This document shows, in pieces, positions 1 to 24,170 of a stretch of DNA of 37,395 nt. Source of the DNA: a virus. Lineage: Duplodnaviria > Heunggongvirae > Uroviricota > Caudoviricetes. Under the pieces are notes generated by a model, which was given only the letters and a program-made list of their open reading frames with translations, searched no databases and was not told the origin of the DNA. Every line of letters begins with the position of its first letter. Positions within the stretch are counted from its first letter, which is position 1. The DNA is taken from positions 1 to 37,395 of the IMG/VR virus record IMGVR_UViG_3300045988_031779. One strand, given 5' to 3'. Position numbers and translations under genes: made by a program.

Positions 1-753
1 AGCATTTTTAAATCGACTGACATCTGGAAGAGTTGATACTTTAAAAGTAAGCCCTAATCCGTCAATTTTATAACCTGGAGATGAGGCTTCAAGGCACGCG
101 CTTATTGCAGTGGAATCGTCATTTATACCATCACCAACAGCTCCAAAATCTTTGGGGCTAATAGCATCACGCATTTTATCCTGGAACGTTCGGTACACAG
201 CCCCAGAACCATACTGAATAAACCAACCAAAACCACCAACAACTCCGGCGATTGTAGCATCGACATAATTACGCATTGAGCGATTATTTACAGCGTCCTG
301 CTCAAATGATGGATCTGCAAGGTTAGAAATTTTGTTTTGCTTTGCATCGTAATATTTTGCAAGCAAAGATGGTTTCATCAATGCACGTCTGAACCACCCA
401 AAACATTGCTGGATCAGCATCGTCAGGTAGTCAAAGGCATCTTCATGCACTTCGGGGAAAAATTTTCCCTGATTGCGAAGGTCTGTGTCCTGCACTACAT
501 CAAGCACACGATCTATCGTAATTCGCCATCCAGTAGCAAGCGGAGACGGAAGAACCACAGAACCGCCACTATAAGTGCCCGCCCCAGTTACCGTATAACC
601 GGTATCCAGGACCAATTCTGTTACGTTCCCGTTCAGGTCAGACACCTGAACAACCAGGTCTGATTTTCTGAAAATTCGAAAAGTATACGGAAACGATGTC
701 GTAACGCCGTTACCGGTGTATTCGTTGTGGTCAACTTCGGTTGAGACCGTCAT
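1..753 (-). CDS. Tailspike/tail fibre protein, N-terminal ~251 aa; gene continues beyond window start
   Basis: Reverse-strand ORF starting ATG at 753..751 (GGAG upstream), no stop before position 1. N-terminus MTVSTEVDHNEYTGNGVTTSFPYTF... follows the spacing pattern of the T7 gp17-type virion-attachment domain; followed by FGAVGDGINDDSTAI, typical of the start of a pectate-lyase-like beta-helix. Not in the supplied ORF track because it is partial. Confidence 0.7.
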   Translation of the reverse strand, partial: MTVSTEVDHNEYTGNGVTTSFPYTFRIFRKSDLVVQVSDLNGNVTELVLDTGYTVTGAGTYSGGSVVLPSPLATGWRITIDRVLDVVQDTDLRNQGKFFPEVHEDAFDYLTMLIQQCFGWFRRALMKPSLLAKYYDAKQNKISNLADPSFEQDAVNNRSMRNYVDATIAGVVGGFGWFIQYGSGAVYRTFQDKMRDAISPKDFGAVGDGINDDSTAISACLEASSPGYKIDGLGLTFKVSTLPDVSRFKNA

Positions 754-856
754 GTTAAATCTCCAGATAGTCGCAGCACCCGTTGCGCCGCATATCTGGT
801 TATTCTATTACCTGAAAAACCATATATGGATAAAAAGACTATAAATACCAATAGAT

Positions 857-873
857 ATTACCTTTCGGGTAAT
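857..873. promoter_or_regulatory. Operator-like palindrome site 1: ATTACC-tttcg-GGTAAT
   Basis: Perfect 6-bp inverted half-sites with 5-bp spacer, in the intergenic region between the tailspike start and the small antirepressor-like gene. Confidence 0.5.
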
Positions 874-909
874 TTGCAAAACGTGCTGGATAGCAAACAA
901 ATTATTTGT

Positions 910-929
910 TACTGTATAAACATACAGTT
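910..929 (+). promoter_or_regulatory. LexA (SOS) box-like site TACTGTATAAACATACAGTT
   Basis: CTGT-N8-ACAG with 17 of 20 matches to the E. coli LexA consensus TACTGTATATATATACAGTA; ends 20 bp upstream of the ATG at 949. Confidence 0.6.
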
Positions 930-948
930 ATTGCATGGAGAAGATAAG

Positions 949-1206
949 ATGCAGCAGTATCACTATCCACTGGAAGACGGATTTACCGAAAGGATTCACA
1001 CGCCGGGAGGCGTCAGGTCACTGGTGGAGGGATCGCACTTGATGAAATTACTCCGGGATCTCGATAAGGATGGATTTAATGTCGATGGCCCACTTGCCGA
1101 ACTGACTGCACTGATTAACTACGTCACCAGCTCACAGATGTCTATGCAGGATCTGCAAACACATCTCGACTATTGTGCCGAACAATTACGAAAACAAACC
1201 CGGTAA
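949..1206 (+). CDS. Small antirepressor-like protein (Tum-like), 85 aa
   Basis: ATG at 949 preceded by GGAG with about 8-nt spacing. Track ORF 826..1206 is the same frame but would contain the operator-like site and LexA box, so the shorter start is preferred. Product is clearly similar (roughly 45 percent identity by eye) to the C-terminal domain of the Bro-N antirepressor at 2355..3065. Confidence 0.5.
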   Translation: MQQYHYPLEDGFTERIHTPGGVRSLVEGSHLMKLLRDLDKDGFNVDGPLAELTALINYVTSSQMSMQDLQTHLDYCAEQLRKQTR

Positions 1207-1210
1207 ATTT

Positions 1211-1232
1211 AAAGGCCGCAAGAGCGGCCTAT
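1211..1232. terminator. Candidate bidirectional intrinsic terminator (GGCCGC-aaga-GCGGCC)
   Basis: 6-bp GC stem between convergent genes 949..1206(+) and 1229..1957(-), T/A-rich flanks on both sides; overlaps the stop of the minus-strand gene. Confidence 0.45.
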
Positions 1233-1957
1233 CGTTTCGCTTTGTGCTCGTCCCAGCACGTTTTGCACCATGCCATTAAGCCGTCCGCATTTTGATTATT
1301 AGGGTAAAAGCTGGTCCGTTTTCTGCGGACATTACAAATTGGGCACCACTTCATATGGCGTGTATTCTTTGGGCCATCGAGGCACCTTGCACACCACTTA
1401 GTCAATCCATCTGGATTTTTTGACGATTTCCGGAATTTGTCATATGGAAGGTTTATTCTGCATCGCAAACACTGCTTGCGGCCACTTGAAACTCTGTTAG
1501 CTGATTCTTCTTTTGGCGGCGATACAGAAGGTATTCTTGCTGGCTCTGATACTGCCTGAGGTGCTTTTTTAGATGACTGAGACGATATGTCATCACCAGG
1601 GAATCTTCCATGATATGCCGGACGCGTTGACACTCCAGGTGGAAGCTCAGCTGTAAACGGCTTTGGCTGAATCAGTTGCCTCTCTTTTGCTAACTCCTGC
1701 TGTTTATAATATGTCTGGATTACCGCACTATCATAAGCAGGAGGTACGGAAATATCAGGCGCGTTACCTCCAGTTTTTTGAAACTGAGTAGATGTGTGTT
1801 CTATCACCTGTGTACGACTAATCGTTACCTCCCCATCTTCGGTCTTTATCGTTTTGTTCTGATTAACGACCGTACGATCAGAGATCTTAGTCTTGTTCTG
1901 GTTGATAACGTAAATAATCACCGCAACCACACCAACAACTATCCAGAAAACTTCCAT
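1229..1957 (-). CDS. Single-pass membrane protein with C-terminal tandem Cys-rich (zinc-ribbon-like) repeats, 242 aa
   Basis: ATG at 1957 with GAGGA upstream; hydrophobic N-terminal helix FWIVVGVVAVIIYVI; C-terminus has two similar units NPDGLTKWCARC and NADGLMAWCKTC plus further Cys pairs. No family recognised. Confidence 0.55.
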   Translation of the reverse strand: MEVFWIVVGVVAVIIYVINQNKTKISDRTVVNQNKTIKTEDGEVTISRTQVIEHTSTQFQKTGGNAPDISVPPAYDSAVIQTYYKQQELAKERQLIQPKPFTAELPPGVSTRPAYHGRFPGDDISSQSSKKAPQAVSEPARIPSVSPPKEESANRVSSGRKQCLRCRINLPYDKFRKSSKNPDGLTKWCARCLDGPKNTRHMKWCPICNVRRKRTSFYPNNQNADGLMAWCKTCWDEHKAKR

Positions 1958-1976
1958 TGCTTTTCCTCACAATAAC

Positions 1977-1993
1977 ATTACCTTAAAGGTAAT
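1977..1993. promoter_or_regulatory. Operator-like palindrome site 2: ATTACC-ttaaa-GGTAAT
   Basis: Perfect palindrome 20-36 nt upstream of the start codon of 1229..1957(-). Confidence 0.5.
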
Positions 1994-2069
1994 ATCTTGC
2001 TTTCAGGTGATCAAGCGTTAAACGCAATCAACCAAATACGGTTGATTTTAATATTTCTTCGCGTTTATC

Positions 2070-2086
2070 ATTACCTTTGCGGTAAA
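2070..2086. promoter_or_regulatory. Operator-like palindrome site 3: ATTACC-tttgc-GGTAAA, with candidate promoter just upstream
   Basis: One mismatch to the palindrome; TTGATT (2040..2045) and TTATCA (2065..2070) form a plausible -35/-10 immediately upstream, reading rightward. Confidence 0.4.
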
Positions 2087-2198
2087 TTTACATCGCACTC
2101 CTCTTGTGCCATAGTAATCGGGCACTGGCAAAATCCAGTGCCGGGATTGGCGTCCCGGGTTACTAAGTGGCGCATACCACGCCAGACGTGGTTTTTTT
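2087..2198 (+). ncRNA. Candidate structured leader or small RNA upstream of the Bro-N antirepressor, ending in an intrinsic terminator
   Basis: Stem-loops at 2121..2142 (GGCACTGG-caaaat-CCAGTGCC) and 2141..2158 (CCGGGA-ttggcg-TCCCGG), then terminator 2177..2198. No convincing ORF; track ORF 1997..2308 lacks a ribosome-binding site and crosses the terminator. Confidence 0.3.
2177..2198 (+). terminator. Intrinsic terminator (CCACG-ccaga-CGTGG followed by 7 T)
   Basis: 5-bp GC-rich stem followed by TTTTTTT on the plus strand, about 155 bp upstream of the Bro-N antirepressor start. Confidence 0.5.
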
Positions 2199-2354
2199 AT
2201 GCGTTAAGCACAGCTATATCCGAATTATGGTGGGCTGGGCAGGGGTCCGAAAGGACGCCGGTACCACTTAGGCCGGTACGCCAACCTTGTCCAGTTCACC
2301 ACCAGTAATTGGCGTTGCGGTGGTGATTAAAATCACTAAGTGGAGATAACCACC

Positions 2355-3065
2355 ATGGCTAATGCTCAAACTTCCATCTTCAAATTTGAATCTGTTAACC
2401 CTATCCGTTCCATCATTATCGATGGCCAACCATGGTTTGTAGCCCAAGACGTTTGTAGTGCGCTGCGTATCCAAAACGTCACCCAAGCACTTGAAAAACT
2501 GGATGATGATGAAAGGTCTATGTTCAACATAGGGCATGAACATCGTGCAATTTTTGACAGCCGAGTAAAAGAGATCAACATCATCTCCGAGTCAGGCCTC
2601 TACACACTGATCCTCCGCTGCCGCGACGCAGTGACACCAGGCACTATCCCCTACCGCTTTCGTAAATGGGTTACAGGTGAGGTTCTTCCTCAGATCCGCC
2701 GCACCGGAAGCTACATTAAAAACTCGCTCCCGCAGGAAGAACGCATAAAGATGGTTGCCGACCAGGTAGCCAACGCCACAGCATCAGCAGTGATGCAGGC
2801 AATGAAGATAGAGAACAAAACCTACAGCGCCCCACTGAAGCCCGGCTACCGCAGCCTGATTCATTCGCCGTCTGGTGTTCTCGGCCTGACGGAGCACTCA
2901 CTGCTGATGAATCTGCTGAACCAGTTACAGGACGACGGGCACGACGTATCGGGCGCGGCGGCGGAGCTGACCACCATGTTCTGCTACATCGTCGGTGTGA
3001 GCAAATGCCTGCGTGATATCCAGACCCACGCGGAGTACATCAACGACAAAGCAGGGTTCTTCTGA
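2355..3065 (+). CDS. Bro-N domain antirepressor with Ant/KilA-C-type C-terminal domain, 236 aa
   Basis: ATG at 2355 with GGAG 9 nt upstream (track ORF begins at GTG 2340 in the same frame). N-terminus IFKFESVNPIRSIIIDGQPWFVAQDVCSALRIQN matches the Bro-N signature; C-terminal domain is paralogous to 949..1206. Confidence 0.7.
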   Translation: MANAQTSIFKFESVNPIRSIIIDGQPWFVAQDVCSALRIQNVTQALEKLDDDERSMFNIGHEHRAIFDSRVKEINIISESGLYTLILRCRDAVTPGTIPYRFRKWVTGEVLPQIRRTGSYIKNSLPQEERIKMVADQVANATASAVMQAMKIENKTYSAPLKPGYRSLIHSPSGVLGLTEHSLLMNLLNQLQDDGHDVSGAAAELTTMFCYIVGVSKCLRDIQTHAEYINDKAGFF

Positions 3066-3136
3066 CGGGCGGCGGCACAGGGATGTGTCTTTAAATCATT
3101 CTGTACAGATTGCAGACTGGGAGTGAATAGCGTACT

Positions 3137-3153
3137 ATTACCCTAAAGGTAAA
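3137..3153. promoter_or_regulatory. Operator-like palindrome site 4: ATTACC-ctaaa-GGTAAA
   Basis: 26-42 nt upstream of the ATG at 3179. Confidence 0.45.
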
Positions 3154-3178
3154 CCATGTGTTTACATGAGGAGGAGAT

Positions 3179-3388
3179 ATGGGATTTTGGTTCGCTCGTA
3201 CAAAAACGAGGGATAATGCACCCAGCCCTCAGGCAAAAAATGCAGAAGTTCCGGCGTCAGCGCAGGTTAACAAGCGTGGTGGAGTATATATCTCATCACA
3301 GCAAATTTCTGAGCTTCCTGAGGTTAAAGAGATGCGTCGTCTCGCTGCTGCAATTGTTAAACAGGATCTTGCCACTGTAAGGAAATAG
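3179..3388 (+). CDS. Hypothetical small protein, 69 aa
   Basis: ATG at 3179 with strong GAGGAGGA upstream; ordinary GC content; stop overlaps the GTG start of the next gene (TAGTG). Confidence 0.45.
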   Translation: MGFWFARTKTRDNAPSPQAKNAEVPASAQVNKRGGVYISSQQISELPEVKEMRRLAAAIVKQDLATVRK

Positions 3389-4251
3389 TGTTGTTAGCTC
3401 TTCTAATTATCCCCATTCTGGTTAGTGGTTATATTATGATAACCGCTAACCAGTATCATTATTTCCGTTTATACCGACATGAAGGCCAGCTTCTTTATAT
3501 GAAAGTAGCTGCATTAGGTACATATTGCCTTGTTGCTTCAGTAATAATTGCCGCATTTATAAAATGTAAATATCCTGATTTTCACCTAGTTCACGACATG
3601 GTGGAAACTTTTAATGTAACGTCAAAACCAGAAACAGATAGAATTTACATGTGGCTACTTCTTCTGTCAGTCACATCAATTTGCTTCTCTTTGTGTTATG
3701 TATCTTTTGTTTGGCTAAAAGATCTTCTTTTAGGTTGTTTTTATAAACGTGATATTTATGACAAAATATCAGAGGCAATGAAAGCTAGAGTATTGCGAAA
3801 AACGTACTCCCAGGGTTCTTTAGATTTGCTATTGCTTGATGCAATCGAATCAGATCCTAAGAAACCAATGTTAATTACTTTATCATCAAATAAAGTATAC
3901 GTTGGAATAATAAATGGTTCTGGTGAGCCAACGGAAAATCAAGGGCCACACCAACACATATCTTTTGTTCCTTTAATGTCAGGGTACAGAAACAAAGAAA
4001 ATTTATCTGTTACATTTACAAACGCTTACCCAGGTGAAATCCAAATTAAGCGCAGTGCTGCGATAAAAGGGATAAGCAAAAAGAAAGTTCAAGGTCTAGA
4101 AATTATGGTATCTATAGACGAAATAAGTCATATATCATGGTTTGACTTTGAAGTATATAAGGCAACCAATAACAAAGTAGAAACAAAGGGTCATGTTGTT
4201 AATGTGACCAAAAATGGTCGCAACATATACTACAGAAGTGGCAGGAAATAA
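3388..4251 (+). CDS. Polytopic membrane protein (about 3 predicted TM helices plus ~170-aa soluble C-terminal domain), 287 aa, AT-rich cargo
   Basis: GTG start overlapping the upstream stop, GGAA 5 nt upstream. Hydrophobic segments LLALLIIPILVSGYIMI, VAALGTYCLVASVIIAAFI, MWLLLLSVTSICFSLCYVSFVW. Sequence visibly AT-rich compared with flanking phage genes (by eye, not computed). No family recognised. Confidence 0.6.
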   Translation: MLLALLIIPILVSGYIMITANQYHYFRLYRHEGQLLYMKVAALGTYCLVASVIIAAFIKCKYPDFHLVHDMVETFNVTSKPETDRIYMWLLLLSVTSICFSLCYVSFVWLKDLLLGCFYKRDIYDKISEAMKARVLRKTYSQGSLDLLLLDAIESDPKKPMLITLSSNKVYVGIINGSGEPTENQGPHQHISFVPLMSGYRNKENLSVTFTNAYPGEIQIKRSAAIKGISKKKVQGLEIMVSIDEISHISWFDFEVYKATNNKVETKGHVVNVTKNGRNIYYRSGRK

Positions 4252-4267
4252 TTTTTACGTAGTTTAG

Positions 4268-4780
4268 GTGGCTTATATGGATAATACTATCTTAGGCGCA
4301 TTGATAGGTGCAGTTATTGCTATAGTTTCTACTTACATAAGTGCAAGGCAAGGATACAAAAACAGCATAAAATTAGAGCGCGAAAAAATATTAAGAGATA
4401 AACGTGAGCAATTATTCACAAATTGCATACTTACTGAAAAAGTCATAGCTTCAAACAAAATGGCTATTCTCAATTTTGTTAACAATGCCAGTTACCACTC
4501 TGATAGTAAATTTGACACATCAAAAGTCAATCCGTTGCAAACGATGGAAATGCTAATAAACATATACCTTCCTGAGTATAAAAAAGACTTACAAGAACTC
4601 AATAATATGTATAACAAGTTTCACAATTACTACTCTCAATATACATGTGCACATACCTTCAAAAATATGCCTGATAATGAGAAGTTGAAGTTTATTGAGG
4701 AAGCTGATTTTTATGCAAAAAAGATATATGGCAAACTTAATGATATTAAGGACAAGATATCATTTAACTCAATAGTATAA
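4268..4780 (+). CDS. Membrane-anchored protein (one N-terminal TM helix, Lys/Asn-rich soluble domain), 170 aa, AT-rich cargo
   Basis: ATG at 4268, 16 nt after the previous stop, with AGGTGG upstream. TM helix ILGALIGAVIAIVSTYI. No family recognised. Confidence 0.6.
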   Translation: MAYMDNTILGALIGAVIAIVSTYISARQGYKNSIKLEREKILRDKREQLFTNCILTEKVIASNKMAILNFVNNASYHSDSKFDTSKVNPLQTMEMLINIYLPEYKKDLQELNNMYNKFHNYYSQYTCAHTFKNMPDNEKLKFIEEADFYAKKIYGKLNDIKDKISFNSIV

Positions 4781-4855
4781 CAGCGATACTGCCGCTGACG
4801 GCTCCCGCTGCGGTGGGCGTTCTGCGGATTCCCGCCCGGGCGGCGGTGGAATTCG

Positions 4856-5740
4856 TTAAAAACAAGGCCGCGAAAGCGGCCTGTTTGATAACTGTGCAGT
4901 TTTCGCTGATCGATTTTCAGCTCTAAATTCAAGAACCGTTTCAATATTTCTTTCCTTCAGCATATCAATAACATTTTTATTCATTTGACTATCACTGGTT
5001 AATAACTGGTAAACGTCGCTTCTCTCTTTATCAGAGTTTTCTTTAACAGCTGCTTTGCATGCCAAATGCTTATTGAAATTTTCTACATCGCTAGTACAGG
5101 AATTTACGGCTGCTGATGAAATATCAGACGCTGAAGAAACACCATCATCCAAACGTTTTATAGCATTTTCTATACATGAGTTAAGGGAATAAACGACAAC
5201 TGAGCGATACCCTTCAGACGCACACCATTCTAAATTTCTTGAAGGATCGAGTGGTTTTACTTCGCTGGATTGAATTAACTTGTCAAAAACTGACTTATAT
5301 TCAATCTGTTTTTTATCTATAGCCCATACTTCAGTAGCTGATTTATAATTCCCCGTATGCCTATTAACATCAAATCCATGTTTTATAAGCAAATCTGCCC
5401 ATGAAAGATTTATTGATTCATTGTTATGAGGCCATTTTCCTGTCAGAACCGCCCCCATAGACCCCATATATCCGCCATATGATGGTATAGCACCATGGCT
5501 CAGTAACTTCTCAGCAACCACAGGGCAATTAATTACATAAGAGGCGTAAAGCCCATTCCATAAAGCCCCTCTATAGTAATCGCCACGATTAGGTTCTTTT
5601 AAGTCGATAGCCTTTGATAATTGTTCACACGTTTTGCATGCATCAAAGTTATCCTTATTGCATTGCAATGAACTGGCAGCTGTAGGATTTACAGAGACTA
5701 TTGAAAGCACTATGCCAAAAAACAAATTTATTTTTTTCAT
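4856..5740 (-). CDS. Secreted protein with Sec-type signal peptide, AT-rich; weak ankyrin-repeat-like motifs, 294 aa
   Basis: ATG at 5740, 1 nt after the stop of the 1129-aa virion protein gene. N-terminus MKKINLFFGIVLSIVSVNPTAASS is signal-peptide-like; ADLLIKHGFDVN and AEKLLSHGA resemble ankyrin repeat ends (weak). Confidence 0.55.
   Translation of the reverse strand: MKKINLFFGIVLSIVSVNPTAASSLQCNKDNFDACKTCEQLSKAIDLKEPNRGDYYRGALWNGLYASYVINCPVVAEKLLSHGAIPSYGGYMGSMGAVLTGKWPHNNESINLSWADLLIKHGFDVNRHTGNYKSATEVWAIDKKQIEYKSVFDKLIQSSEVKPLDPSRNLEWCASEGYRSVVVYSLNSCIENAIKRLDDGVSSASDISSAAVNSCTSDVENFNKHLACKAAVKENSDKERSDVYQLLTSDSQMNKNVIDMLKERNIETVLEFRAENRSAKTAQLSNRPLSRPCF
4866..4883. terminator. Bidirectional intrinsic terminator candidate (AGGCCGC-gaaa-GCGGCCT)
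   Basis: 7-bp GC stem with GAAA loop, flanked by AAAAACA upstream and GTTTGAT downstream, at the convergence of the plus-strand module and the minus-strand late operon; overlaps the last codons of 4856..5740. Confidence 0.5.
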
Positions 5741-5741
5741 C

Positions 5742-8700
5742 CTATTTCATCTGCTCTTCAACTTTATTTAGTAATGGTGATATCGCCCACAGGTTCTGAA
5801 AAGGTAGCATTTTACGGACCGCGTGGGTTTGCTGGCTGTCAAATTCTCCGTTAAGTACACCATTCGCAACCGTCGCGGCATCACCGCCAAGATCAAAGGT
5901 AGGACCAAGTAAAGCACCAATAGCATTACGACTCTGAAACCTTGATACCGGAGGCGCACCAAACATCGCGCCAAGACCAAACCTACCACCGCTTATGTTC
6001 TCAACGGTATTCAGCGGCTCAGAGAGCCAGCCAAGCATTCCGCCCCGGTCGATCCCCTCTTTCACAAGGTTATTCCAGCTGTAGTCAATATCGCGACCGC
6101 TTAACTTCTGTTTCATCATATAGACCATTGAGCCAAGCGCAATCGTGCCAAGCGCACCAAGATAGAATGCAGCATCGCCCTGCTGGATACCAGATACCAG
6201 CACCCTGTTATGCTGTGCGAAGATAAACGTTTTGAACTGCGTGATCATCTTCCAGCCTTCTTTACTAAAAAACAGCGGTGTATCACCTACGCCAGGCGTT
6301 ACAATCACTGAGTCTACATCTTTCAGCACTGCAGACTGGAAAATCTCTCTAGCGAAACGGTCATCCCACAGATGACTATGCCCGGTTAACAGCCCGTCCA
6401 TATCCTCTCCGTGCTTCCCGAATTGCTCCCCGATTCGACGCAGAACATCTTCATTGATGCCGACCTGTGCCATCTTCCGCATTTCACTTTTGGAGAGCGT
6501 GCCACCAGCAGAAACTTGGCGAGCCGCGTCAAGTATCCTCGACTGCACTATCATCCCAGACCATGATTTAAGTGCGCTGTTCCACTGATTCATCAGCGTC
6601 CAGTTACCGAATTTCTGCGTCATCCAGTTCAGACCTCGCTCAGCGGCGCTTCTCCGGCTATAGGGGTCAGTAAGATCCGCTATAGCCTTTGTACGCGTAG
6701 ACAGGACATAATCAAGCCCAACGGCCATTTCTCGCAAATCCCTGGTTGCAATTTTCACTGAGTCCATATTTTTAAGCATGCTTACCATTGGTCCGAGAGA
6801 TTTTCTCAGGCCATGCTGCATCATCGGTCGCATCAGATCAGTTGCAGCGGAGACAGTCATTCCACCAAGCAAACGGAGGAAGTTAATATTCCTAGCAACT
6901 CGCCCGGCACGAACAAAGAAACTGCGTGGATCTTGAGGTGCACCGTAAGTACCAAGCAGTCGATCACGCATAGCCGTAATATCCCTAATATCAGCCTCCC
7001 GTTGCTTCTCAAGAACTGCACGTCGTTTAGGTGTTTTAGCCTCTTTTATTAGCCGGGTATATTCCTCACTAACCTGACGGATTTGCTCCCCCATATCTTT
7101 ACGGCCAAACTGCGCAGTCAGCTCAATTTCTGGTGCCACCTGCCGGAGATAACTTTCCATGATGTAGTTAACATCTGATTCAAGAAAATCTTCTATACGC
7201 TCATCAGGAATAAGCAGCGTTCTGCTTTTAGTGAAACCAGCCCGACCAACGAGTCTCTCTGGGATAATATCGGCTGGTACAAGCCCGGAAGGTGCGCCTA
7301 TTATTTTATTCACGATCTCGTCAGCAGCGTCCTCTGCTTCCTCTCGGGATAGAGGCTCCATCTGCTTCAGTGCTCGTTCGCGGCTTGCATTCAGCCTTGT
7401 GGTTGAATTTGCCCGTTTTTGCAGTCGGCGAAGCTCAGAACGATATTTCCGTGGATTATCCAGCAACTCCATATGGCGCTGATAGACAGGAAGCTCACTC
7501 TTTGCCTGCGCTATATCATCAAGGCGTGTTTTAAGGTCAGAGCTTTCTTTCATCATTCTTGCCTGAAGTTTTTCTGATGAAGTCTCGGCCAACTCTTTTT
7601 CTATTCTTGTAAGACGCGCCTGTGTGTCAGTCTCCTGAGATATAAGCTTATTTCGTTTATCCAGTTCTTCCATGAGTAGAATTTTTTTACCAGACCATTT
7701 CTCCGCTTCAGCGATTTCACTAGCGAGAGCATCAGCGCGCGGTGCCGATTCCTCTGCAGTTTTTAGCAATGAATTTATCCTTTCAATTCGCTGACCTGCC
7801 TTGTCAGCACCTTTGGCACTAATCCCTTGTATCCAGTTGGCAATTCGCCCTCTGAATTCAGTGCGGTCGGAAAGTATCTTATCGAACTTATAAATGCGGG
7901 GAAGATAACTTTTCGCCGTCACGACATCGATATCCTCAGGAAGGATCCCCAGTTCCTGCATACGGGCTTTTGTGATCTCGAAAATGGGGCGGATTCTGGC
8001 GGCTGCTTGTGAAACCTCAGGAATATCACTCTGATCACCACGGCGCATGGCCATGCCAACAGCTTCATTGAAATCAATAAAGTTCATCCTCTTCACGCCG
8101 CGGGCGCTAACAGATTTGCTGTACTGCTGATAAGCATCACGAGTGGCTTCCATCTGCTTATAAAGCATGGCGTCGTATTGCTTAATCTTAGTCTCGACTG
8201 CCGTAAACGTAGCCAACCCCTCATCATTTTTGGCGAAGAAATAGTTATTTTCGGCAAGCTGCTGGTTAATCTGACGGGAGACAAGAGATGGTGATTGCGC
8301 CAAGCGGCCAGCAGGAGTGACACTCAACGTTTTGTTAGCAAGTCCAAGTCCAGCGAGCTGTTCCTGATCGAGTGTGGTATTGAAAACCTGAGCTGCACCA
8401 ATGCTTTGAGGAGAATCCATACCTCGCAAATGATTACCTACTGAGTTAACCACTGCCTCGCGCGCGCTAGGTCCAGCAAGTAGCTGTGCACCAGCACCAA
8501 GGATCCCACCAACGAGAGCATCAACAACAACGTTCGATACGCTCTCCATCGGTGAGCGAGCTTCCTGAGTGGCCTGTAATGCGGCTTCTGATACTCCCCC
8601 ACCAGCAGCATTCGCCAGGGCAAAACGCCCTGCCGTCTCAGCAATACTTCCTCCACGCGCTACCGCCCCTACAGGGATGAACATTGCAGCCACATTAACC

Positions 8701-16394: not shown

Positions 16395-16395
16395 C

Positions 16396-16833: not shown

Positions 16834-16884
16834 CTTCTTTCTCCATTGGTGGGTCTGTTACGACCCACAGGTTAATAACAGGCG

Positions 16885-17877: not shown

Positions 17878-17885
17878 TTCCTCTC

Positions 17886-18587
17886 TTATTTGCCATAGAG
17901 CACTTCGGCCGCACTACGCTGGCCTTCATTACCACCGGTGACCATGCCATCTTCAGACATCGCCTTTCCGATTTTCACGAACGTTTTGACCAGATCAGGG
18001 TGATTACCCAGCCCGGTGGTGTTCAGATATTCTTTGAGTTCAGGTGTCCCGAACTGGTCAAGCGCACGCTGTGCGGCGCTAAGGTTAGAAATCAACTTGT
18101 CGCCACCGATTTCTTTGTCGGCTTTTACATCCGCAGCCCACTGCTCGGTTGTTTTCTGCCAGGCTTCTGCCTGGCGCTGCTGAACACCTGCCAGAATCTT
18201 CGGATAAGCATCAACCAGCCTTTGCGCTTGCTCGTTGGTCAGGTTAAGTTCTCGCGCCACCGGCTCGAATTCCTTCAACGCTTCTGTATCCAGCTCTACG
18301 CCTTCGGCAGCCTGAAATTCGTACTTCTCCGGCGCACCCTCTGGTTTATCGCCGTCTTTTTTTTCACCCTGCTTATCGTTTTCAGATTTTTTTTCATCAT
18401 CAGGTTTATCGACATCAGCAACAGGTTGTGGCTTATCACCTTCCTGTTGTGATGGATCACCAACTGGAGCAGGGTTATCACCTGTAGGCGCTGACGGTTC
18501 TGACGCAGCCGGAGCTGCTCCACCATCGACTGGTTGCTCATTGCAAAGACGGCGATACAGCAAACGCTCAAATAAATTCATGATCAC
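17886..18587 (-). CDS. Scaffolding protein, 233 aa
   Basis: Highly acidic, Pro/Ala/Lys-rich low-complexity N-terminal half with a helical C-terminal half, between portal and capsid genes. Confidence 0.6.
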   Translation of the reverse strand: MIMNLFERLLYRRLCNEQPVDGGAAPAASEPSAPTGDNPAPVGDPSQQEGDKPQPVADVDKPDDEKKSENDKQGEKKDGDKPEGAPEKYEFQAAEGVELDTEALKEFEPVARELNLTNEQAQRLVDAYPKILAGVQQRQAEAWQKTTEQWAADVKADKEIGGDKLISNLSAAQRALDQFGTPELKEYLNTTGLGNHPDLVKTFVKIGKAMSEDGMVTGGNEGQRSAAEVLYGK

Positions 18588-18880
18588 TCCTGTTCACTGG
18601 CCTCTTTGGCCATCTTCAAATACTGTTCAGGGCAATGCGCCATAACGCGCTGAAACAGTTCCAGCGCCAGATTGCGTTGCCCCTCATTAAATGCCATTGC
18701 CATAGCGTCCATCGGTGAGATAGCGGAAAACACACGGCCTTTCTCCAGCACCGACCAGACAACGCGACGCCCCTGTTCACTGCTCATGACAAAGCGAATG
18801 TCATCAATTTCACGCTGCGCCATGTCACGTTGCTTACGGGCGTTTTCTTCTTTCAGTTGATCGTCTTCGTAATCTGTCAT
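18584..18880 (-). CDS. Hypothetical small head-assembly protein, 98 aa
   Basis: Coupled ORF between portal and scaffold genes (4-nt overlaps both sides). Confidence 0.45.
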   Translation of the reverse strand: MTDYEDDQLKEENARKQRDMAQREIDDIRFVMSSEQGRRVVWSVLEKGRVFSAISPMDAMAMAFNEGQRNLALELFQRVMAHCPEQYLKMAKEASEQE

Positions 18881-20556
18881 TGTGATTGCCCACCCTGACC
18901 ACTAACTGCATTCGCCATAGCTGACAAAACACTCGGATCCGAAGTTTTAGCTTCACTTAGCGTCTTGGCACCCTGTGCCGCCGCCATCCCCATCGCCATC
19001 ATTTGTTGCTGCTGTTGTTGCTGTGCCCGTTGCTGGCGAGCCTGCTCAACCTGTTCCTGCGGAACAATGACGGTTGGAGACACTCCGGACATATCAGCGA
19101 ATGCATCGATCGCCTGATCAACGTTGAGTTTGTCGAGAGCTTCTGGTTTCGCTTGCGCAAGTTGACCAATGAAGTTAACCGTGGACGCCAGACTGGACAG
19201 GCCGATAGACTTCTGCGCCTGAGCCATGACGGAAATGTATTCGACCTTCAGGGGCATGCCTTCCATCGCGTCAGGCGGTGGCGGCAGCATGTTTTTACGC
19301 ACCATCATCGAGAAAGAGCGATCAATGAGAGGATTAAGACATTCGTCGTTCAGGCGCTCCAGAACCGGCCCCAACATCAGAAGTTTTTCTTCTTTCATTT
19401 CGATCACCGCTTCCACAGGCATCGAGCGGGTATTGATGTTCTGCAACATCATGAACAGATCGACAAAGTAGGCGCTGTTAATGATTTGACGAGTGTCCTG
19501 AATGTCTGCCACCAAATCTGCTGTACTGGGGTTAACCAGATAAGCAGGCCTGAAACCATCCTGACCAGTAATCTGATCGATATACGTGATGTCGCCAGGA
19601 AGAAGGGAGGCACGCTGATTCTTGAGGGAAGTCGGAGCAACCATCGGCGGATTGGTAGCTTTATCAATCAACTGCGACTTGCGCTTCTGGAGAAGCTGCA
19701 ATGCCTTAACAGGTCCAAGCGCCAGCATACCCGGGCATGATGATCCATAAACATCTTCGCCGTTAACTTCCCAGCGCGGAGCCATAATTGGAAACTCATC
19801 GAATCCGGACTCACGCAACAACTTGTCGTTATCGCCACCAACCTCGTAATAAACCGATTTGAATGGCTTGTTCTTGCTATCCAGCTTCGATGTATCGCGG
19901 TCAATGTTCGGGTAAACCGAATGCATCACTTCAATCCACTTCTCGTAGGTGCCGCTTTCCCACATGCTTTTTACGGATTCGCTGACGTTATTTAGCCCGA
20001 ATTCCTGAACAAGCTGACGAACAGTCATAGAGAACTTGCGAAAACAGGTGTCCACACTGCCACGAGGTGAGTTAGCCAGGTAGTAACTGCCTATCGGGAA
20101 TGGCATTGTGCGAATGATGTCCTCGTCATCCTCCAGCACTGCCATTGCACCAGTGCTGTATGTGCCGAGGCTTCCGTATAACTGCGGCAGCGACTGATAG
20201 AGATTCGACTTATTGAACATATCGTTCATGCGGTTCTGCACCGCCTCAAGCCACAACTTAACAGGGCCATAATCCATCATTTCAGGATCTGGCGTAGCCA
20301 GGCGAAACCACGGACGCGCGGGGCTTGTGATGCCTGACATCATGCCGCTGGCGAGAGTGCGCGCCGCCATAGTCCCGGTCGAATCAATAATGCGTGTATT
20401 GCGTCGATCGTTACGGTTGACCTCAGAAGTCAGAAAGCGGGAACCACGCGGGTTGATGTAATCACTCAACTCGCGCCAGTGCGGCTCGAACGACTGACGC
20501 TCGCTTTCAAGTTGTGCGAACTGTTTGTTCAATCGCTCTTTAGTTGTTTCCGCCAT
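18877..20556 (-). CDS. Portal protein, 559 aa
   Basis: Size, position at the head of the structural block, Gln/Ala/Met-rich C-terminal tail typical of portal proteins. Confidence 0.7.
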   Translation of the reverse strand: MAETTKERLNKQFAQLESERQSFEPHWRELSDYINPRGSRFLTSEVNRNDRRNTRIIDSTGTMAARTLASGMMSGITSPARPWFRLATPDPEMMDYGPVKLWLEAVQNRMNDMFNKSNLYQSLPQLYGSLGTYSTGAMAVLEDDEDIIRTMPFPIGSYYLANSPRGSVDTCFRKFSMTVRQLVQEFGLNNVSESVKSMWESGTYEKWIEVMHSVYPNIDRDTSKLDSKNKPFKSVYYEVGGDNDKLLRESGFDEFPIMAPRWEVNGEDVYGSSCPGMLALGPVKALQLLQKRKSQLIDKATNPPMVAPTSLKNQRASLLPGDITYIDQITGQDGFRPAYLVNPSTADLVADIQDTRQIINSAYFVDLFMMLQNINTRSMPVEAVIEMKEEKLLMLGPVLERLNDECLNPLIDRSFSMMVRKNMLPPPPDAMEGMPLKVEYISVMAQAQKSIGLSSLASTVNFIGQLAQAKPEALDKLNVDQAIDAFADMSGVSPTVIVPQEQVEQARQQRAQQQQQQQMMAMGMAAAQGAKTLSEAKTSDPSVLSAMANAVSGQGGQSQ

Positions 20557-20570
20557 TTCAATGACTCCGG

Positions 20571-20777
20571 TTACTGACCAAGCAGCGTTTTACCGCTGGT
20601 ATTAGCGGTTGATGTGTCGCCCTGAGAACCGGTAAGCAGCGTAGAACTACGACCAGCAGCAGCGCGACGGCGACGAGTTTCTTCGTCGCGGGCATCAACA
20701 ACGGCGGCATCCTGCTCCTGTGGTGCTGCCTGAACTTCTGGTGTTGCAGGCACTGATGGTGAGCTACCCATGCACAT
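20571..20777 (-). CDS. Possible small acidic Ala-rich protein upstream of portal, 68 aa
   Basis: ATG at 20777 with GGAG about 9 nt upstream; low-complexity sequence; competing overlapping ORF 20558..20797 in another frame. Low confidence. Confidence 0.3.
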   Translation of the reverse strand: MCMGSSPSVPATPEVQAAPQEQDAAVVDARDEETRRRRAAAGRSSTLLTGSQGDTSTANTSGKTLLGQ

Positions 20778-20845
20778 ATCAATGACTCCGTACGCAATTA
20801 AATTACTACCAATTTAACCACATATGATTTATTTATCGTAGATAG

Positions 20846-20883
20846 TTGACATTTAACGCACAAATTATTACCTTTCAGGTAAC
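20846..20883 (+). promoter_or_regulatory. Rightward promoter candidate (TTGACA) overlapped by operator-like site 5 (ATTACC-tttca-GGTAAC, 20867..20883)
   Basis: Consensus -35 hexamer at 20846..20851; the palindrome sits where the -10 and transcript start would be; faces the tRNA and moron ORF. Confidence 0.4.
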
Positions 20884-21204
20884 CAAAGAGTTCATTCCGG
20901 TTACTAACCTGACTGGCTTGTCGTTAAATTGAACAGGTGGAGTGAGCTTTTATTTTGAGCAGTACGGCGTATGGCACATGCGCCGATAGCGGTCTGGATA
21001 CGTTTAAGGGGCACCCTCCCTGGCTGTGGCAAACGAACCAGGTAGCCGGAATGTGCAAGTCGAGCGGTTTTATTCCGCGCACGGGGATTCACCATCCCGG
21101 CGATTCGGTGTGACGCCTCGGAAGAGACGAGGGTACAACGATGAGAGCATTTATGGAGCCGCGACAAAGTGTGGCGCCTTAACAGGCTAAGTGCTCTCAG
21201 CGTT

Positions 21205-21281
21205 GTGGCATTAGCTCAGCTGGACAGAGCAACCGCTTTCTAAGCGGTTGGTCGCAGGTTCGAATCCTGCATGCCACGCCA
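21205..21281 (+). tRNA. tRNA-Arg (anticodon UCU)
   Basis: 77-nt cloverleaf folded by hand: 7-bp acceptor stem GTGGCAT/ATGCCAC, D arm GCTC/GAGC, anticodon stem ACCGC/GCGGT with loop TTTCTAA (anticodon TCT), T arm GCAGG-TTCGAAT-CCTGC, discriminator G, encoded CCA. Resembles enterobacterial argU-type tRNAs. Confidence 0.85.
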
Positions 21282-21324
21282 GAATCACGCCTAAGGACCG
21301 TGATGCCAGAAGTTCCAGGGGCTT

Positions 21325-21368
21325 GGCGGTGATGGTTTCCCTTGAAGGACTATCACCGCCCTTTTTAC
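21325..21368 (+). terminator. Intrinsic terminator after the tRNA (GGCGGTGAT ... ATCACCGCC followed by CTTTTT)
   Basis: 9-bp stem with a long loop followed by a T-run on the plus strand; a second GC hairpin plus T-run lies at 21445..21469 just before the ORF at 21479. Confidence 0.45.
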
Positions 21369-21478
21369 AGCATGACGCCATTGCGATGGCTTCATGCTGT
21401 AAACCAGTACAGCCACGGAAGGCATAACTCATTGCTTCCAGTTCGCCCGATTCGCCGGGCATTTTTTTTAGGTGAGAT

Positions 21479-21902
21479 CATGAAAACAGCCGACATGCTA
21501 GCTAAATATCTAAATGAATGGCCGTGCAAATATGTACGCATTGTTCAGGGTGATGACTCAATTTTTTATGGTGTTTTTGCAGGAAATGAAATGCTTTGTG
21601 AAGCAATTCCAGGTGAGCGACTTGCCGGGTTAACGCTTAGCGATGACCATGGAATAGGAGTTACTTGCCATGACTGGATTTCAGCGCAGAAAACTGAAAT
21701 GGAAAAAGGCAATGTGTTTGATATTTCTCGCGCTGTATACGCCAAAGAAAAAAGTGATGATGATTACATGCGCGAAAACTTATACAACATGAAGTTACAA
21801 TGCCTGGCTGAAGTGCTTAGTAAAAGATCTTTACTTGATGTGGTTGGTGCTGAGCAGGACGCCAAGGCAATCAACGCCGCATTCGATAAAATAACCTTCT
21901 AA
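21479..21902 (+). CDS. Hypothetical moron protein, 141 aa
   Basis: ATG at 21479 with GGTGAG 4 nt upstream (track ORF 21342..21902 is the same frame extended). Encoded on the strand opposite the flanking terminase and portal genes, downstream of the tRNA. No family recognised. Confidence 0.5.
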
Positions 21903-21905
21903 CGC

Positions 21906-21920
21906 CGTGACATGTCACAA
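21906..21920. repeat. 15-bp element CGTGACATGTCACAA (copy 1; contains the 12-bp palindrome GTGACATGTCAC)
   Basis: Exact second copy at 24171..24185; each copy is followed by a terminator-like hairpin. Confidence 0.6.
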
Positions 21921-21922
21921 AC

Positions 21923-21949
21923 AGCCAGCCTATGAGCTGGCTTTGTTTT
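21923..21949 (+). terminator. Intrinsic terminator (AGCCAGC-ctatga-GCTGGCT followed by TTGTTTT)
   Basis: 7-bp stem plus T-rich tail directly after the stop of 21479..21902 and the palindrome. Confidence 0.5.
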
Positions 21950-21992
21950 ATCCTCACCAGAGGATATCAACGACATTATCCCCACCAGCGGA

Positions 21993-23468
21993 TTAAGCAT
22001 AGGGATCGTAATCTGTGATGGCCTTGCCTTGCTGGTTCTGCTGACCGGGAATTCGCAGACGCTTAGACACAGGGAACGCAAACGTCAGCAGTAGCGCATC
22101 GCCTTTACCCGGTGAACGCCCAAGCCGCTCCTTGATATCTTCCTTCGGTTCGATAACGATTTTACCGTCCACTCGAACTTTGTACTCTGCCGCCGACAGG
22201 TCGTCTGCTGTTTCCTGGTCATCCAGCATGCCGCCCAGCCTCAGCCATGTCTTGCATGAATTGAACATCTCCCCACGCTTGTTGAGCATCTGCGGGTCAG
22301 TAGACGCGCCACCGAACGGAACAAGTTGCCATGTACGACCCCAGCCGTCACCGATTGACTTCAAACCGGTTCCGTAACCGAAGTCGATGAACACCGCGTC
22401 AGCCTGATACTGGTCTTCAAAGTCAGCGATACGCTTCGCCATAATCAGATCGTCGGTAGTCTTGTTGCCAGTCCACAGCACCTTACTGTGTAGCCCCTGC
22501 CGCAGGTATATCACAGCGTCATCAACGCCGGAGTATGCCGGGTCAACGCCGATTATCACCGGAGCATGTGCAACCTGCGCAGCGGTTACCACCCGTTTCA
22601 TTGCCTCGTCAGTAAGACCGGTAGGGATAAACTGCAATTCAGATGCATCAGGGAATATGCCACGCACACGGATTTTAACGAAGTCGCTGTCTTCCCCGTA
22701 GTCATCAACCCATTTCTGCAACTGCTGTTTGTTAGTGCCTTCCACCGTCCGGCTGTCAATCTGCGCAGTTTTCCAGCGGTGTTTATATTTGCGGAAACAT
22801 TCGCGAAAACGCCCGGTGTTACGTGTAGGGTTTCCGAACGCCACCCAAATAATCTCAGTGTCTTCGTCCGTAAGCGCACCCTCGGCAACTTCCCACACCA
22901 GATCCGCAATGTTCGACGCTTCATCAAACACCACGATGATGCGTTTGCGCTCGTTGTGTAGTCCGGCGAATGCCTCGGTGTTGTGCTCAGACCAGGGTAT
23001 TGCGTCAGCCCGCCACCGCTTGTCGTGCCCTAGGTCATTGCTGTACATCGCGGTAGCGGTACAGGTAAACCAGTCTTTCGTGATAGCAAGGTTCGACCAC
23101 TTGATAATTTCCGGCCAGGTCTTCGTTCGTAGCTGGTTGTCGGTGTTGGCGGTCACCACGACCTTACAATCCTCGCAAGTGGACATGCCCCAGTTGATCA
23201 GCATTGAGATGAATGCGGATTTACCAATACCGTGACCAGAAGCGCGTGCCAGCATAAGCGGCTGATAGCGCGTCTCTGGATTCTGCAGGTGATCACGTAT
23301 CTCTCGGAACGCATCAGCCTGCCACTGACGTGGGCCGGTGGCATGTGCCAGTTCAGTCCCCTCTTCCCCCCATGGGAACGCATAGAGGGCATAGCCAAGC
23401 GGATCGTGAGTGAACCCTGCAATATCCTCGATTAACTGCTCTTCAGGAGATAACGCTGTATCTGTCAC
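21993..23468 (-). CDS. Terminase large subunit, 491 aa
   Basis: Size, ATPase-like N-terminal region and acidic nuclease-like C-terminal region, 4-nt overlap with the small subunit gene upstream. Confidence 0.8.
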   Translation of the reverse strand: MTDTALSPEEQLIEDIAGFTHDPLGYALYAFPWGEEGTELAHATGPRQWQADAFREIRDHLQNPETRYQPLMLARASGHGIGKSAFISMLINWGMSTCEDCKVVVTANTDNQLRTKTWPEIIKWSNLAITKDWFTCTATAMYSNDLGHDKRWRADAIPWSEHNTEAFAGLHNERKRIIVVFDEASNIADLVWEVAEGALTDEDTEIIWVAFGNPTRNTGRFRECFRKYKHRWKTAQIDSRTVEGTNKQQLQKWVDDYGEDSDFVKIRVRGIFPDASELQFIPTGLTDEAMKRVVTAAQVAHAPVIIGVDPAYSGVDDAVIYLRQGLHSKVLWTGNKTTDDLIMAKRIADFEDQYQADAVFIDFGYGTGLKSIGDGWGRTWQLVPFGGASTDPQMLNKRGEMFNSCKTWLRLGGMLDDQETADDLSAAEYKVRVDGKIVIEPKEDIKERLGRSPGKGDALLLTFAFPVSKRLRIPGQQNQQGKAITDYDPYA

Positions 23469-24061
23469 TGATTGCCATCCTGACGTTCTTTCAGTCTCTT
23501 CCTGGCTGCCGCTATGCGATCAGCAATTGTCACATTCACATTAACATCCAGGCGTTCTTTGAATGCGTTGACGTCGACGTGCTTACCAATCAGTTCGAGG
23601 TTCTTCACCTTGTCAGGCCATTTAATTTTTTTGAGGATTGTCTCTATCGAATCCTCGTTCATGTTCATGATGGTCGATGACAGATCAAAGCCACTAAGCG
23701 TAGTGCGCCAGATTTTCGGCCACTCGCGGATTGGCTTAAGGCTCCCATCGTCGTTGAGGATGTCGATCACGTCCATCTGGTCGATCTCCACCAGGCGCAT
23801 GAGAACGTAATCAGCACTGACGCGCATTCGTTTGTTGCGCTCTTCCATCAGCTCGGCAATCCGTTTTTGAATGCGTTCATCGCGCATCATGAGACTGGCT
23901 TTAACTGCCGCTGTATTTGGGGAGAATCCTGCGTTAATCGCTGCCTGAGTCTGGTTTTCAGGCGTTTTGATGTATGACTGGCAATAAGCCTCCTGCATTG
24001 CTGTTAGTGGCTTAAATTGCGTTGATTTGCGTTTATAGGTTTTAGGTTCAGCAGGCATCAT
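23465..24061 (-). CDS. Terminase small subunit, about 198 aa
   Basis: Start preferred at the ATGATG at 24061; the track start at 24139 adds an N-terminal extension (TITTTVTITTVV) that is the translation of a direct DNA repeat and reads through a terminator. Motif PLTAMQEAYCQSYIKTPENQTQAAINAGFS resembles small-terminase N-terminal DNA-binding domains. Confidence 0.6.
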   Translation of the reverse strand: MMPAEPKTYKRKSTQFKPLTAMQEAYCQSYIKTPENQTQAAINAGFSPNTAAVKASLMMRDERIQKRIAELMEERNKRMRVSADYVLMRLVEIDQMDVIDILNDDGSLKPIREWPKIWRTTLSGFDLSSTIMNMNEDSIETILKKIKWPDKVKNLELIGKHVDVNAFKERLDVNVNVTIADRIAAARKRLKERQDGNQ

Positions 24062-24077
24062 AACCACCGTGGTAATA

Positions 24078-24094
24078 GTTACCGTTGTGGTAAT
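24078..24094. promoter_or_regulatory. Operator-like palindrome site 6: GTTACC-gttgt-GGTAAT, embedded in direct repeats GTGGTAATAGT
   Basis: 17-33 nt upstream of the small terminase start; direct repeats GTGGTAATAGT at 24069..24079 and 24087..24097. Confidence 0.4.
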
Positions 24095-24112
24095 AGTACC
24101 ATGCAAAATAAA

Positions 24113-24130
24113 GCCGCCATAGTTGGCGGC
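24113..24130 (-). terminator. Intrinsic terminator on the minus strand (GCCGCC-aactat-GGCGGC followed by TTTATTTTG)
   Basis: 6-bp GC stem with T-rich tail in the minus-strand sense, between the last early gene (24180..24518) and the terminase genes. Confidence 0.45.
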
Positions 24131-24170
24131 AGTATTCAAAACCCATCAAATTCATCATGCATAACCCACT

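Follow-up and report, generated by a model that had tools for sequence, protein, structure and literature searches.

The DNA analysed here covers positions 1 to 37,395 of the IMG/VR virus record IMGVR_UViG_3300045988_031779; this whole stretch of 37,395 nucleotides (nt) is called the window below. Its head-to-ejection genes form one long minus-strand block, beside which lie a block of accessory genes, the beginning of a tailspike gene, and an arm of immunity, replication, recombination and integration genes (Table 1; coordinates from the listing of open reading frames, ORFs). With a probability of about 0.93, the window represents the interior (37.4 kb) of a prophage of the phiV10/epsilon15 type (Uetakevirus-like), a temperate phage with a short tail whose likeness to phage T7 reflects an ancient shared descent of the tail and ejection apparatus. 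The initial annotation, made from the letters alone, had described a mosaic genome with a T7-like virion module inside a lambdoid temperate backbone. The order and sizes of the genes downstream of the portal gene were found as it described, on the minus strand. Its gene list was right in order; it had left out the 98-aa, the 145-aa (cement) and the 114-aa head genes and a tRNA-Arg between TerL and the portal.

Relatives and limits of the window

The structural part (1-24139) and the right arm (24140-37395) were searched separately against phage DNA records. By megablast, Escherichia phage EC.W1-9 (PP445227) covers 85% of the structural part at 97.4% identity; TL-2011b, phiv142-3, phiV10 (NC_007804), the O157 typing phages 9 and 10, PAS61 and ZX5 are 97-98% identical, and epsilon15 is 77% identical over the terminase-to-tail genes. 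No T7-like phage was among the listed matches of this part. EC.W1-9 is 97.6% identical to 4780-21468 in a single ungapped block, and the two integrase genes are 98% identical in DNA. The phiV10 identity of 97-98% extends over 11972-24179 and over 62% of the right arm. EC.W1-9, phiV10, TL-2011b, phiv142-3 and vB_EcoP_ZX5 share the gene order of the window, with 97-98% DNA identity over the terminase, portal, head, adaptor, nozzle and gp13/gp14-like genes, the integrase, RecET and the repressor. EC.W1-9 has the same ejection cassette, but another distal part of the tailspike and other accessory and nin-region genes; phiV10 differs in its ejection cassette, in the presence of p13 and in the receptor part of its tailspike. 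Coverage multiplied by identity comes to some 55% for phiV10 and some 68% for EC.W1-9, values which stand beside a genus rule of the International Committee on Taxonomy of Viruses that asks for 70% or more nucleotide identity across the whole genome; the window, however, is a part genome, and the EC.W1-9 record has no genus assignment.

Related DNA was present in 671 of 5426 complete E. coli genomes. The closest chromosomal relative, 99% identical, is a prophage of strain CUVET20-PYO2 (L003), which continues beyond the window with the endosialidase tailspike, followed by a holin, a GH19 endolysin and a DUF2514 protein. In this prophage and in EC.W1-9 the lysis genes come after the tailspike, not before the terminase. 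The published attachment (att) core of Uetakevirus attP is ATTGAGTGGGAATGATT (PMC9782041); it adjoins yfgI in the CUVET20-PYO2 prophage, beside the lysis genes, and was absent from the window when searched for. Base 1 of the window falls inside the tailspike gene, and the last base, 37395, opens the integrase start codon. Neither end of the prophage is in the window, nor are the lysis genes and the C-terminus of the tailspike. Since the att sites and the lysis genes are outside, the window itself does not show whether the prophage is complete; it is the DNA identity, together with the placement of the att core and the lysis genes outside in the CUVET20-PYO2 prophage, that makes the window the interior of a phiV10/epsilon15-type prophage.

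Table 1. Features of the window, with position, strand and basis of assignment
Feature	Position	Strand	Basis or remark
Tailspike, first 251 codons only	1-753	-	Translation; cut by window start
126-aa ORF	826-1206	+	ORF
Membrane/Cys-rich ORF, 242 aa	1229-1957	-	ORF
BRO-N antirepressor-like gene	2340-3065	+	Bro-N E 1e-19
Low-GC membrane protein pair	3388-4251 (287 aa), 4268-4780 (170 aa)	+	ORFs
Secreted protein, 294 aa	4856-5740	-	phrog_6118, function unknown
Internal virion (ejection) protein, 1129 aa	5742-9131	-	T7 gp16 counterpart
Internal virion protein, 915 aa	9131-11878	-	gp15 position
Internal virion protein, 191 aa	11878-12453	-	T7 gp14 family
Internal virion protein, 154 aa	12453-12917	-	T7 gp13 homologue
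Tail nozzle (tubular tail protein B), 823 aa	12917-15388	-	T7 gp12-type
Adaptor (tubular tail protein A), 201 aa	15388-15993	-	T7 gp11 position
114-aa gene, head block	16050-16394	-	ORF
Cement/decoration protein, 145 aa	16396-16833	-	Pfam Bbp16
Major capsid protein, 330 aa	16885-17877	-	Pfam GP7 E 3e-149
Scaffold-like protein, 233 aa	17886-18587	-	Composition; database label 'protease'
Bbp19-like protein, 98 aa	18584-18880	-	Pfam Phage_Bbp19
Portal, 559 aa	18877-20556	-	Pfam Head-tail_con PF12236 E 3e-187
tRNA-Arg, anticodon TCT	21205-21281	+	ARAGORN; between TerL and portal
TerL	21993-23468	-	With TerS: phrog_2, phrog_51
TerS	23465-24139	-	Pfam Terminase_2 E 1e-29
Early/replication/recombination/integration backbone	24180-37395	both	Pfam
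DUF551, Ead/Ea22, DUF1064	early/replication genes	leftward	Pfam
lambda P	29303-30103	leftward	Pfam Phage_lambda_P E 1.5e-56
DnaT/HTH_36 initiator, not lambda O type	30085-30924	leftward	Pfam
HTH_3 repressor, 194 aa	31676-32260	+	Pfam
RecE-like PDDEXK nuclease	32865-33686		Pfam
RecT	33656-34600		Pfam
AlpA (excisionase-like), PerC	right arm		Pfam
MT-A70 methylase	35288-35950		Pfam
Tyrosine integrase	36145-37395	-	Pfam

Relationship of the structural proteins to those of T7

Direct comparison of 16 structural proteins of the window with 15 T7 proteins (gp6.7-gp19) by BLASTP and phmmer gave nothing significant; only faint best matches pointed to syntenic partners. A plain search for nozzle homologues gave only relatives of at least 82% identity, and a representative search with IMG/VR loci was used for the profiles instead. 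Each window protein was represented by a profile from 80 related IMG/VR loci (nozzle identity 31-100%) and each T7 protein by one from 80 T7-group loci, and the 16 x 15 families were compared all against all with hhalign. Shallower T7 profiles from 19 close loci scored gp14 at 12.8% and gp17 at 21.5%; the 80 loci scored them at 87.9% and 90.2%. Seven of the eight syntenic tail/core pairs were the best match in their own row, whereas all non-syntenic cells were below 5%, leaving the syntenic diagonal alone visible; we estimated the chance of such synteny at about 4e-8. Default Pfam thresholds gave T7-type matches for the portal and the gp14-like protein only, and relaxing the thresholds brought in nothing more than Phage_T7_tail and Phage_T7_Gp13, both below the cut-off. 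When window profiles were run on an equal footing against single sequences, T7 proteins gave signals and P22 proteins none.

The tail and ejection half of the window (portal, adaptor, nozzle, four internal proteins and spike anchor) follows the order of T7 gp8 and gp11-gp17. The searches against T7 gp8 through gp17 which the initial annotation had proposed gave strong matches for gp8, gp12, gp13, gp14 and the N-terminus of gp17, weak ones for gp11 and gp16, and none for gp9, gp10 and gp15. Homology is demonstrable for T7 gp8, gp12, gp13, gp14, gp16 and the gp17 N-terminus, and weakly for gp11. T7 has the same order of portal, adaptor, nozzle, gp13, gp14, gp15-position gene, gp16 and fibre anchor; however, its homology to the window is visible by profiles and structures only, and its capsid, scaffold and terminase are unrelated by sequence. 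Compared with T7, the phage of the window is temperate, lacks an RNA polymerase, has extra head decoration genes, and carries enzymatic tailspikes instead of fibres.

The portal matches T7 gp8 (hhalign 98.9%, E 2e-17) and belongs to the same Pfam family, PF12236; PHROGs 332 and 449 cross-match reciprocally between the two. The 201-aa adaptor aligns weakly with T7 gp11 (35%, E 4e-4), over its full length and as the best match in its row. Its PHROGs, phrog_394 ('tail protein') and phrog_9239 ('tail tubular protein'), differ from that of gp11; it matches the 'Connector Protein' of Carin-1 (PDB 8ck1_E, E 3e-26) and also orf17 of LME-1. The 823-aa nozzle is 44% identical to the 'Tail Nozzle' of Carin-1 (8ck1_A, E 6e-217), and aligns with T7 gp12 at full length (92.7%, E 4e-7, 657 columns). 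Its AlphaFold2 model has a predicted local distance difference test score (pLDDT) of 92; Foldseek found Carin-1 first (template modelling score, TM, 0.91), then the LME-1 nozzle, then T7-type nozzles, with E 1e-20 to 1e-24 and TM of about 0.53 for the T7 gp12 chains. For the 471-residue chain of P22 gp10 the values were E 1e-8 and a query-based TM (TMq) of 0.33. A profile search with the nozzle also matched nozzle chain 23sh_T (E 2.5e-6), and the nozzle family comprises 18,304 cluster representatives. Carin-1, a podovirus of Cobetia marina (8CK1, 8CJZ), is the nearest solved tail; its nozzle, connector, anchor, capsid and decoration protein match those of the window. It differs as a marine phage with another depolymerase domain, in a comparison confined to the virion proteins.

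The head has another relationship, and is of the epsilon15/BPP-1/Carin-1 type as judged by sequence. The capsid protein is the only one named by the NCBIfam scan (equivalog MCP_gp7_epsi_15, E 1.6e-123), and it matches the capsids of BPP-1 (3j4u_A, E 1e-127), epsilon15 (gp7, 3j40_A, E 1e-85) and Carin-1 (8cjz). The 145-aa cement protein matches that of BPP-1 (3j4u_H, E 4e-26) and the Carin-1 decoration protein, and shows no T7 signal. The pairs capsid/gp10, 233-aa protein/gp9 and TerS/gp18 scored at most 0.5% in hhalign, without T7 signal; TerS/gp18 was at 0.1% and TerL/gp19 at 5.5%, in keeping with the annotation of the terminase pair as non-T7; TerL is no closer to gp19 than the background. 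The capsid and scaffold PHROGs differ as well (212 and 458 in the window, 267 and 1052 in T7). The 233-aa protein resembles a scaffold by its sequence, the N-terminus being acidic and rich in Pro and the C-terminus helical; the label 'protease' of PHROGs and RefSeq was rejected, as no protease domain was found and the composition is scaffold-like. The tRNA-Arg lies on the strand opposite to the structural operon, and is also annotated in the O157 typing phages 9 and 10 and in Klebsiella phage ST512-KPC3phi13.3.

Epsilon15 and BPP-1 have the same capsid family as the window, and BPP-1 also the same cement protein; they differ from the phage of the window in hosts, receptors and seroconversion genes, and the gp10 protein of epsilon15 is without homologue in the window. 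A homologue of phiV10 p13, which the phiV10 record annotates as similar to epsilon15p10, was not found in the window by tblastn; the intergenic gap between the adaptor and 114-aa genes (15993-16050) measures 57 bp. Epsilon15 gp10 is the capsid 'staple' protein. A p13 homologue is present in 34 of the 80 related loci and absent in EC.W1-9; loci L009, L011 and L048 lack it as judged by shifted gene coordinates. The window keeps the Bbp16-type cement gene.

The first two internal proteins are clearly related to their T7 counterparts. The 154-aa protein matches gp13 (hhalign 98.8%, E 7e-17) and shares phrog_308 with it. The 191-aa protein matches Pfam T7_gp14 (E 4.4e-8; 33.7 bits, cut-off 27) and T7 gp14 itself (87.9%, E 3e-6), and the RefSeq name of an identical prophage gene is 'virion core protein, T7 gp14 family'. 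The 1129-aa protein matches phrog_342 (E 9e-235, profile positions 192-1227), which is also the best PHROG of T7 gp16 (E 0); the alignment with gp16 itself is weak (19.7%, E 1.2e-3, 921 columns, gp16 183-1305). It lacks the gp16-type N-terminal transglycosylase domain, and gave no sequence match in the PDB. The 915-aa protein showed no signal against T7 gp15 even with the 80-loci profiles (0.3%). It is mostly alpha-helical, with an embedded domain of lysozyme/transglycosylase type at about residues 245-400, which was the only match of the family profile to PDB sequences. T7 and the window both have a cell-wall-degrading domain on an ejected protein, which is at the N-terminus of gp16 in T7 and in the gp15-position protein in the window. 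As a separate observation, the gp15-position protein is hypervariable: loci with a 100% identical nozzle (L004, L018, L023 and others) carry a 35%-identical family member of 837 aa, and the best database match to the allele in the window is only 88% identical.

The ejection genes also differ among close relatives. phiV10 (L164, 2080-9141) has no DNA similarity to 3076-11972 of the window; near 11972, within the gp14-like gene, similarity sets in abruptly and the identity rises from none to 98%. The region is a non-homologous replacement, in which two genes of the window (915 and 1129 aa; phrog_1044 and phrog_342) take the place of three in phiV10 (837, 600 and 824 aa; phrog_992, 1145 and 684). 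The cassette of the window is common to EC.W1-9 and the CUVET20-PYO2 prophage. A tentative reading, which we regard as possible but on balance doubtful, is that the E. coli phages of the phiV10 type hold at least two non-homologous ejection cassettes, swapped at a breakpoint in the gp14-like gene. The cassette of the window would be the more T7-like one, since its 1129-aa protein falls in the PHROG of T7 gp16 and phiV10 p20 does not; the 915-aa protein would be a gp15 homologue, giving a complete gp14-gp15-gp16 ejectosome in which the wall-degrading domain has moved from gp16 to gp15. The 915-aa protein would then offer a first, weak hint from structure that the epsilon15 group has a gp15 homologue, which sequence methods had missed (Hardies et al. 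2016).

Tailspike, accessory genes and temperate backbone

Residues 1 to about 204 of the tailspike (nt 142-753) are a particle-binding anchor of the phiV10/Carin-1 type that distantly resembles the N-domain of T7 gp17. The resemblance to the gp17 attachment domain, seen by eye in the initial annotation, was borne out by hhalign (90.2%, E 1.5e-6; residues 4-210 against gp17 3-192) and by four PHROGs matched by both proteins (phrog_1640, 8460, 2710 and 27277). The only Pfam match of the anchor was Phage_T7_tail (PF03906), below the cut-off (E 0.0047); the match to Carin-1 Dpo31 was at E 1e-35. Up to about residue 196 the anchor hardly differs from that of EC.W1-9, after which the two diverge, and positions 319-1206 of the window are 83% identical in DNA to the region of the phiV10 tail-fibre N-terminus. 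A conserved N-terminal anchor has been described for the first 205 or so aa of the phiV10 receptor-binding protein (PMC10408124).

Residues 205-251 (nt 1-141) match Pfam End_N_terminal (E 3e-17) and the phi92 and K1F endosialidases (E 1e-9 to 6e-7). The CUVET20-PYO2 prophage has at 4635-7753 a full tailspike gene with an 'endosialidase catalytic beta-propeller', annotated there as frameshifted. Judging from this endosialidase-type receptor-binding part, the phage probably has the K1 polysialic-acid capsule as its receptor. An endosialidase tail protein has already been published for one Uetakevirus: that of ZX5 combines a T7-like N-domain with endosialidase and chaperone domains (PMC9782041), the same anchor-plus-endosialidase design as in the window.

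The accessory genes (826-5740), a moron/antirepressor block, sit, as had been noted at the outset, between the ejection-protein genes and the tailspike and include the BRO-N antirepressor-like gene; a BRO-N block before the tailspike is also found in Uetakevirus relatives. Within it, an island at 3179-4780 has a guanine-plus-cytosine (GC) fraction of 0.37, against about 0.50 elsewhere. It has no DNA counterpart in EC.W1-9, phiV10 or the CUVET20-PYO2 prophage. Its 287-aa and 170-aa proteins have N-terminal membrane segments and gave no Pfam or PADLOC match; the island may be superinfection-exclusion or defence cargo of unknown type. The 294-aa protein has a clear N-terminal signal peptide and is kept in EC.W1-9 and in the E. 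coli prophage; its gene begins two bases past the end of the gp16-like gene. Its role could be that of an additional virion or ejection protein, or of a moron acting in the periplasm. The 242-aa ORF has an N-terminal transmembrane helix, repeated CxxC motifs at the C-terminus and a weak match to the Stc1 domain (E 3.5e-4), and is kept in the CUVET20-PYO2 prophage, not in EC.W1-9.

The right arm matches DNA of 576 phage records, more than 200 of them Shiga toxin (Stx)-converting, mostly at 90-99% identity and in short segments. The lambdoid components that had been assigned to the early, replication and recombination regions are present (lambda P, Ea22, RecET, an HTH repressor and an integrase), and 'lambdoid' is a fair loose label for this backbone. 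The putative repressor gene faces the leftward replication genes, and its HTH_3 domain is at residues 106-147; neither an S24 peptidase domain of the LexA/cI type in the repressor nor a cro-like gene was found. With no S24 domain seen in the repressor, induction may work through the BRO-N/antirepressor genes and not through RecA-mediated self-cleavage. No N-like or Q-like antiterminator was among the Pfam matches of the backbone ORFs, small ORFs being left out. There is no single-subunit RNA polymerase, as the only ORFs of more than 600 aa are the structural ones of 823, 915 and 1129 aa, and the backbone ORFs are otherwise assigned. Genes lie on both strands, not all on one as in T7-like phages. 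The phage is not strictly lytic, as shown by an integrase, a repressor and an AlpA-type gene, and by relatives that are chromosomal prophages.

Origin of the architecture

The genome is made up of three parts: head and packaging genes like those of epsilon15, BPP-1 and Carin-1; a T7-related tail and ejection apparatus; and an immunity, replication, recombination and integration backbone that shares genes with lambdoid phages. The particle is modelled on the solved particles of Carin-1, T7 and epsilon15. In this model the portal dodecamer would hold the 201-aa adaptor as a ring and the 823-aa nozzle as a hexamer, and six trimeric tailspikes would dock via the gp17-like N-terminal anchor. The 154-, 191-, 915- and 1129-aa proteins would be packaged in the head on the portal and ejected to form a trans-envelope conduit for the DNA. 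To breach the peptidoglycan, the phage would use the lysozyme-like domain of its 915-aa protein, where T7 uses the gp16 N-terminus.

This architecture is already known. In a comparison of hidden Markov models (HMM-HMM), Hardies et al. (2016) found homologues of T7 tubular tail proteins A and B and of internal virion proteins A, B and D in the epsilon15 group but were unable to confirm internal virion protein C; they placed the epsilon15 terminase and capsid with those of siphoviruses (PMC4819975). Their term for the T7-type tail and ejection apparatus is the 'transient tail homology group'. Swanson et al. (2022) also placed epsilon15 among the podoviruses with gp14/15/16-like ejection proteins (PMC8954989). 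The present results reproduce the picture of Hardies et al. A T7-like tail in a lambda-like backbone is the normal architecture of the phiV10/epsilon15 group and no new mosaic, so the 'mosaic genome' of the initial annotation is no special feature of this DNA. Its 'T7-like virion module' holds by profiles for the tail and ejection half, and not for the scaffold-like, capsid and cement proteins. As to its proviso that the structural proteins might match another podovirus lineage, they do so in a near sense, the nearest being phages of the phiV10/epsilon15 type at 97% DNA identity.

The T7 resemblance is a matter of deep ancestry, confined to the tail and ejection half, and not of recent exchange with a T7-like phage. 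A recent graft that brought a complete T7-like (Autographiviridae) set of virion genes, scaffold and capsid through fibre, into a temperate genome of lambdoid type would account for a gene order and gene sizes parallel to T7 gp8-gp17, for the syntenic remote homology of seven of the eight tail/core genes and for the two PHROGs common with T7. It is nevertheless very unlikely: no T7 protein gave a significant BLASTP or phmmer match, and no T7-like record was among the listed DNA matches; the capsid, scaffold-like protein and terminases lack T7 signal, and the head is that of epsilon15/BPP-1. The same layout across the 80 related loci and many enterobacterial prophages, and the 18,304 nozzle representatives, point to an old lineage, and the relationship has been published as deep homology (PMC4819975). 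Even more improbable, to the point of being negligible, is a lambdoid podophage of the P22 kind (Lederbergvirus) with the same portal-to-tailspike layout. P22 follows the same concept of lambdoid early genes with a short-tail virion module, is likewise temperate, and has a parallel gene order in which the immI/ant block lies between genes 16 and 9, comparable to the accessory/antirepressor block before the tailspike here. However, P22 has no detectable sequence relationship to the window in its structural proteins in the profile test, as all syntenic cells of the window profiles against them were at or below 1.4%; it also has a shorter nozzle, a needle, and another portal family and tailspike anchor. 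The portal of the window is in the Pfam family of T7 gp8, its anchor is of the gp17 type, its nozzle is of the full-length T7/Carin type (about 800 aa), with P22 gp10 matched only at the E 1e-8 and TMq 0.33 given above, and no gp26-like needle gene follows the nozzle gene.

A further alternative concerns function only and is compatible with the family assignment: the window might be part of a decayed, non-inducible prophage remnant that forms no particles. The window has neither att sites nor lysis genes, and the endosialidase tailspike is annotated as frameshifted in the closest chromosomal relative, which would suit such a remnant. The missing parts are, however, absent only through the cut of the window, and every structural ORF is intact, with lengths as in the viable EC.W1-9. 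The capsid and scaffold-like genes differ from those of EC.W1-9 by two codons only, at the annotated start, and the ungapped block of 97.6% identity spans 4780-21468. Decay is therefore considered unlikely, though it is a more serious alternative than either of the two foreign origins.

As an inner part of a phiV10/epsilon15-type prophage, the window belongs to a prophage type that is abundant in E. coli, and many of its structural genes, recorded as 'hypothetical', can be named from the solved T7 and Carin-1 structures: the adaptor, the nozzle, the gp13-, gp14- and gp16-like ejection proteins and the gp17-type spike anchor. The swappable ejection cassette shows that exchange within the group reaches even the 'core' internal proteins. 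The specificity for the K1 capsule suggested by the tailspike is relevant to phage typing, to therapy and to the engineering of receptor-binding proteins.

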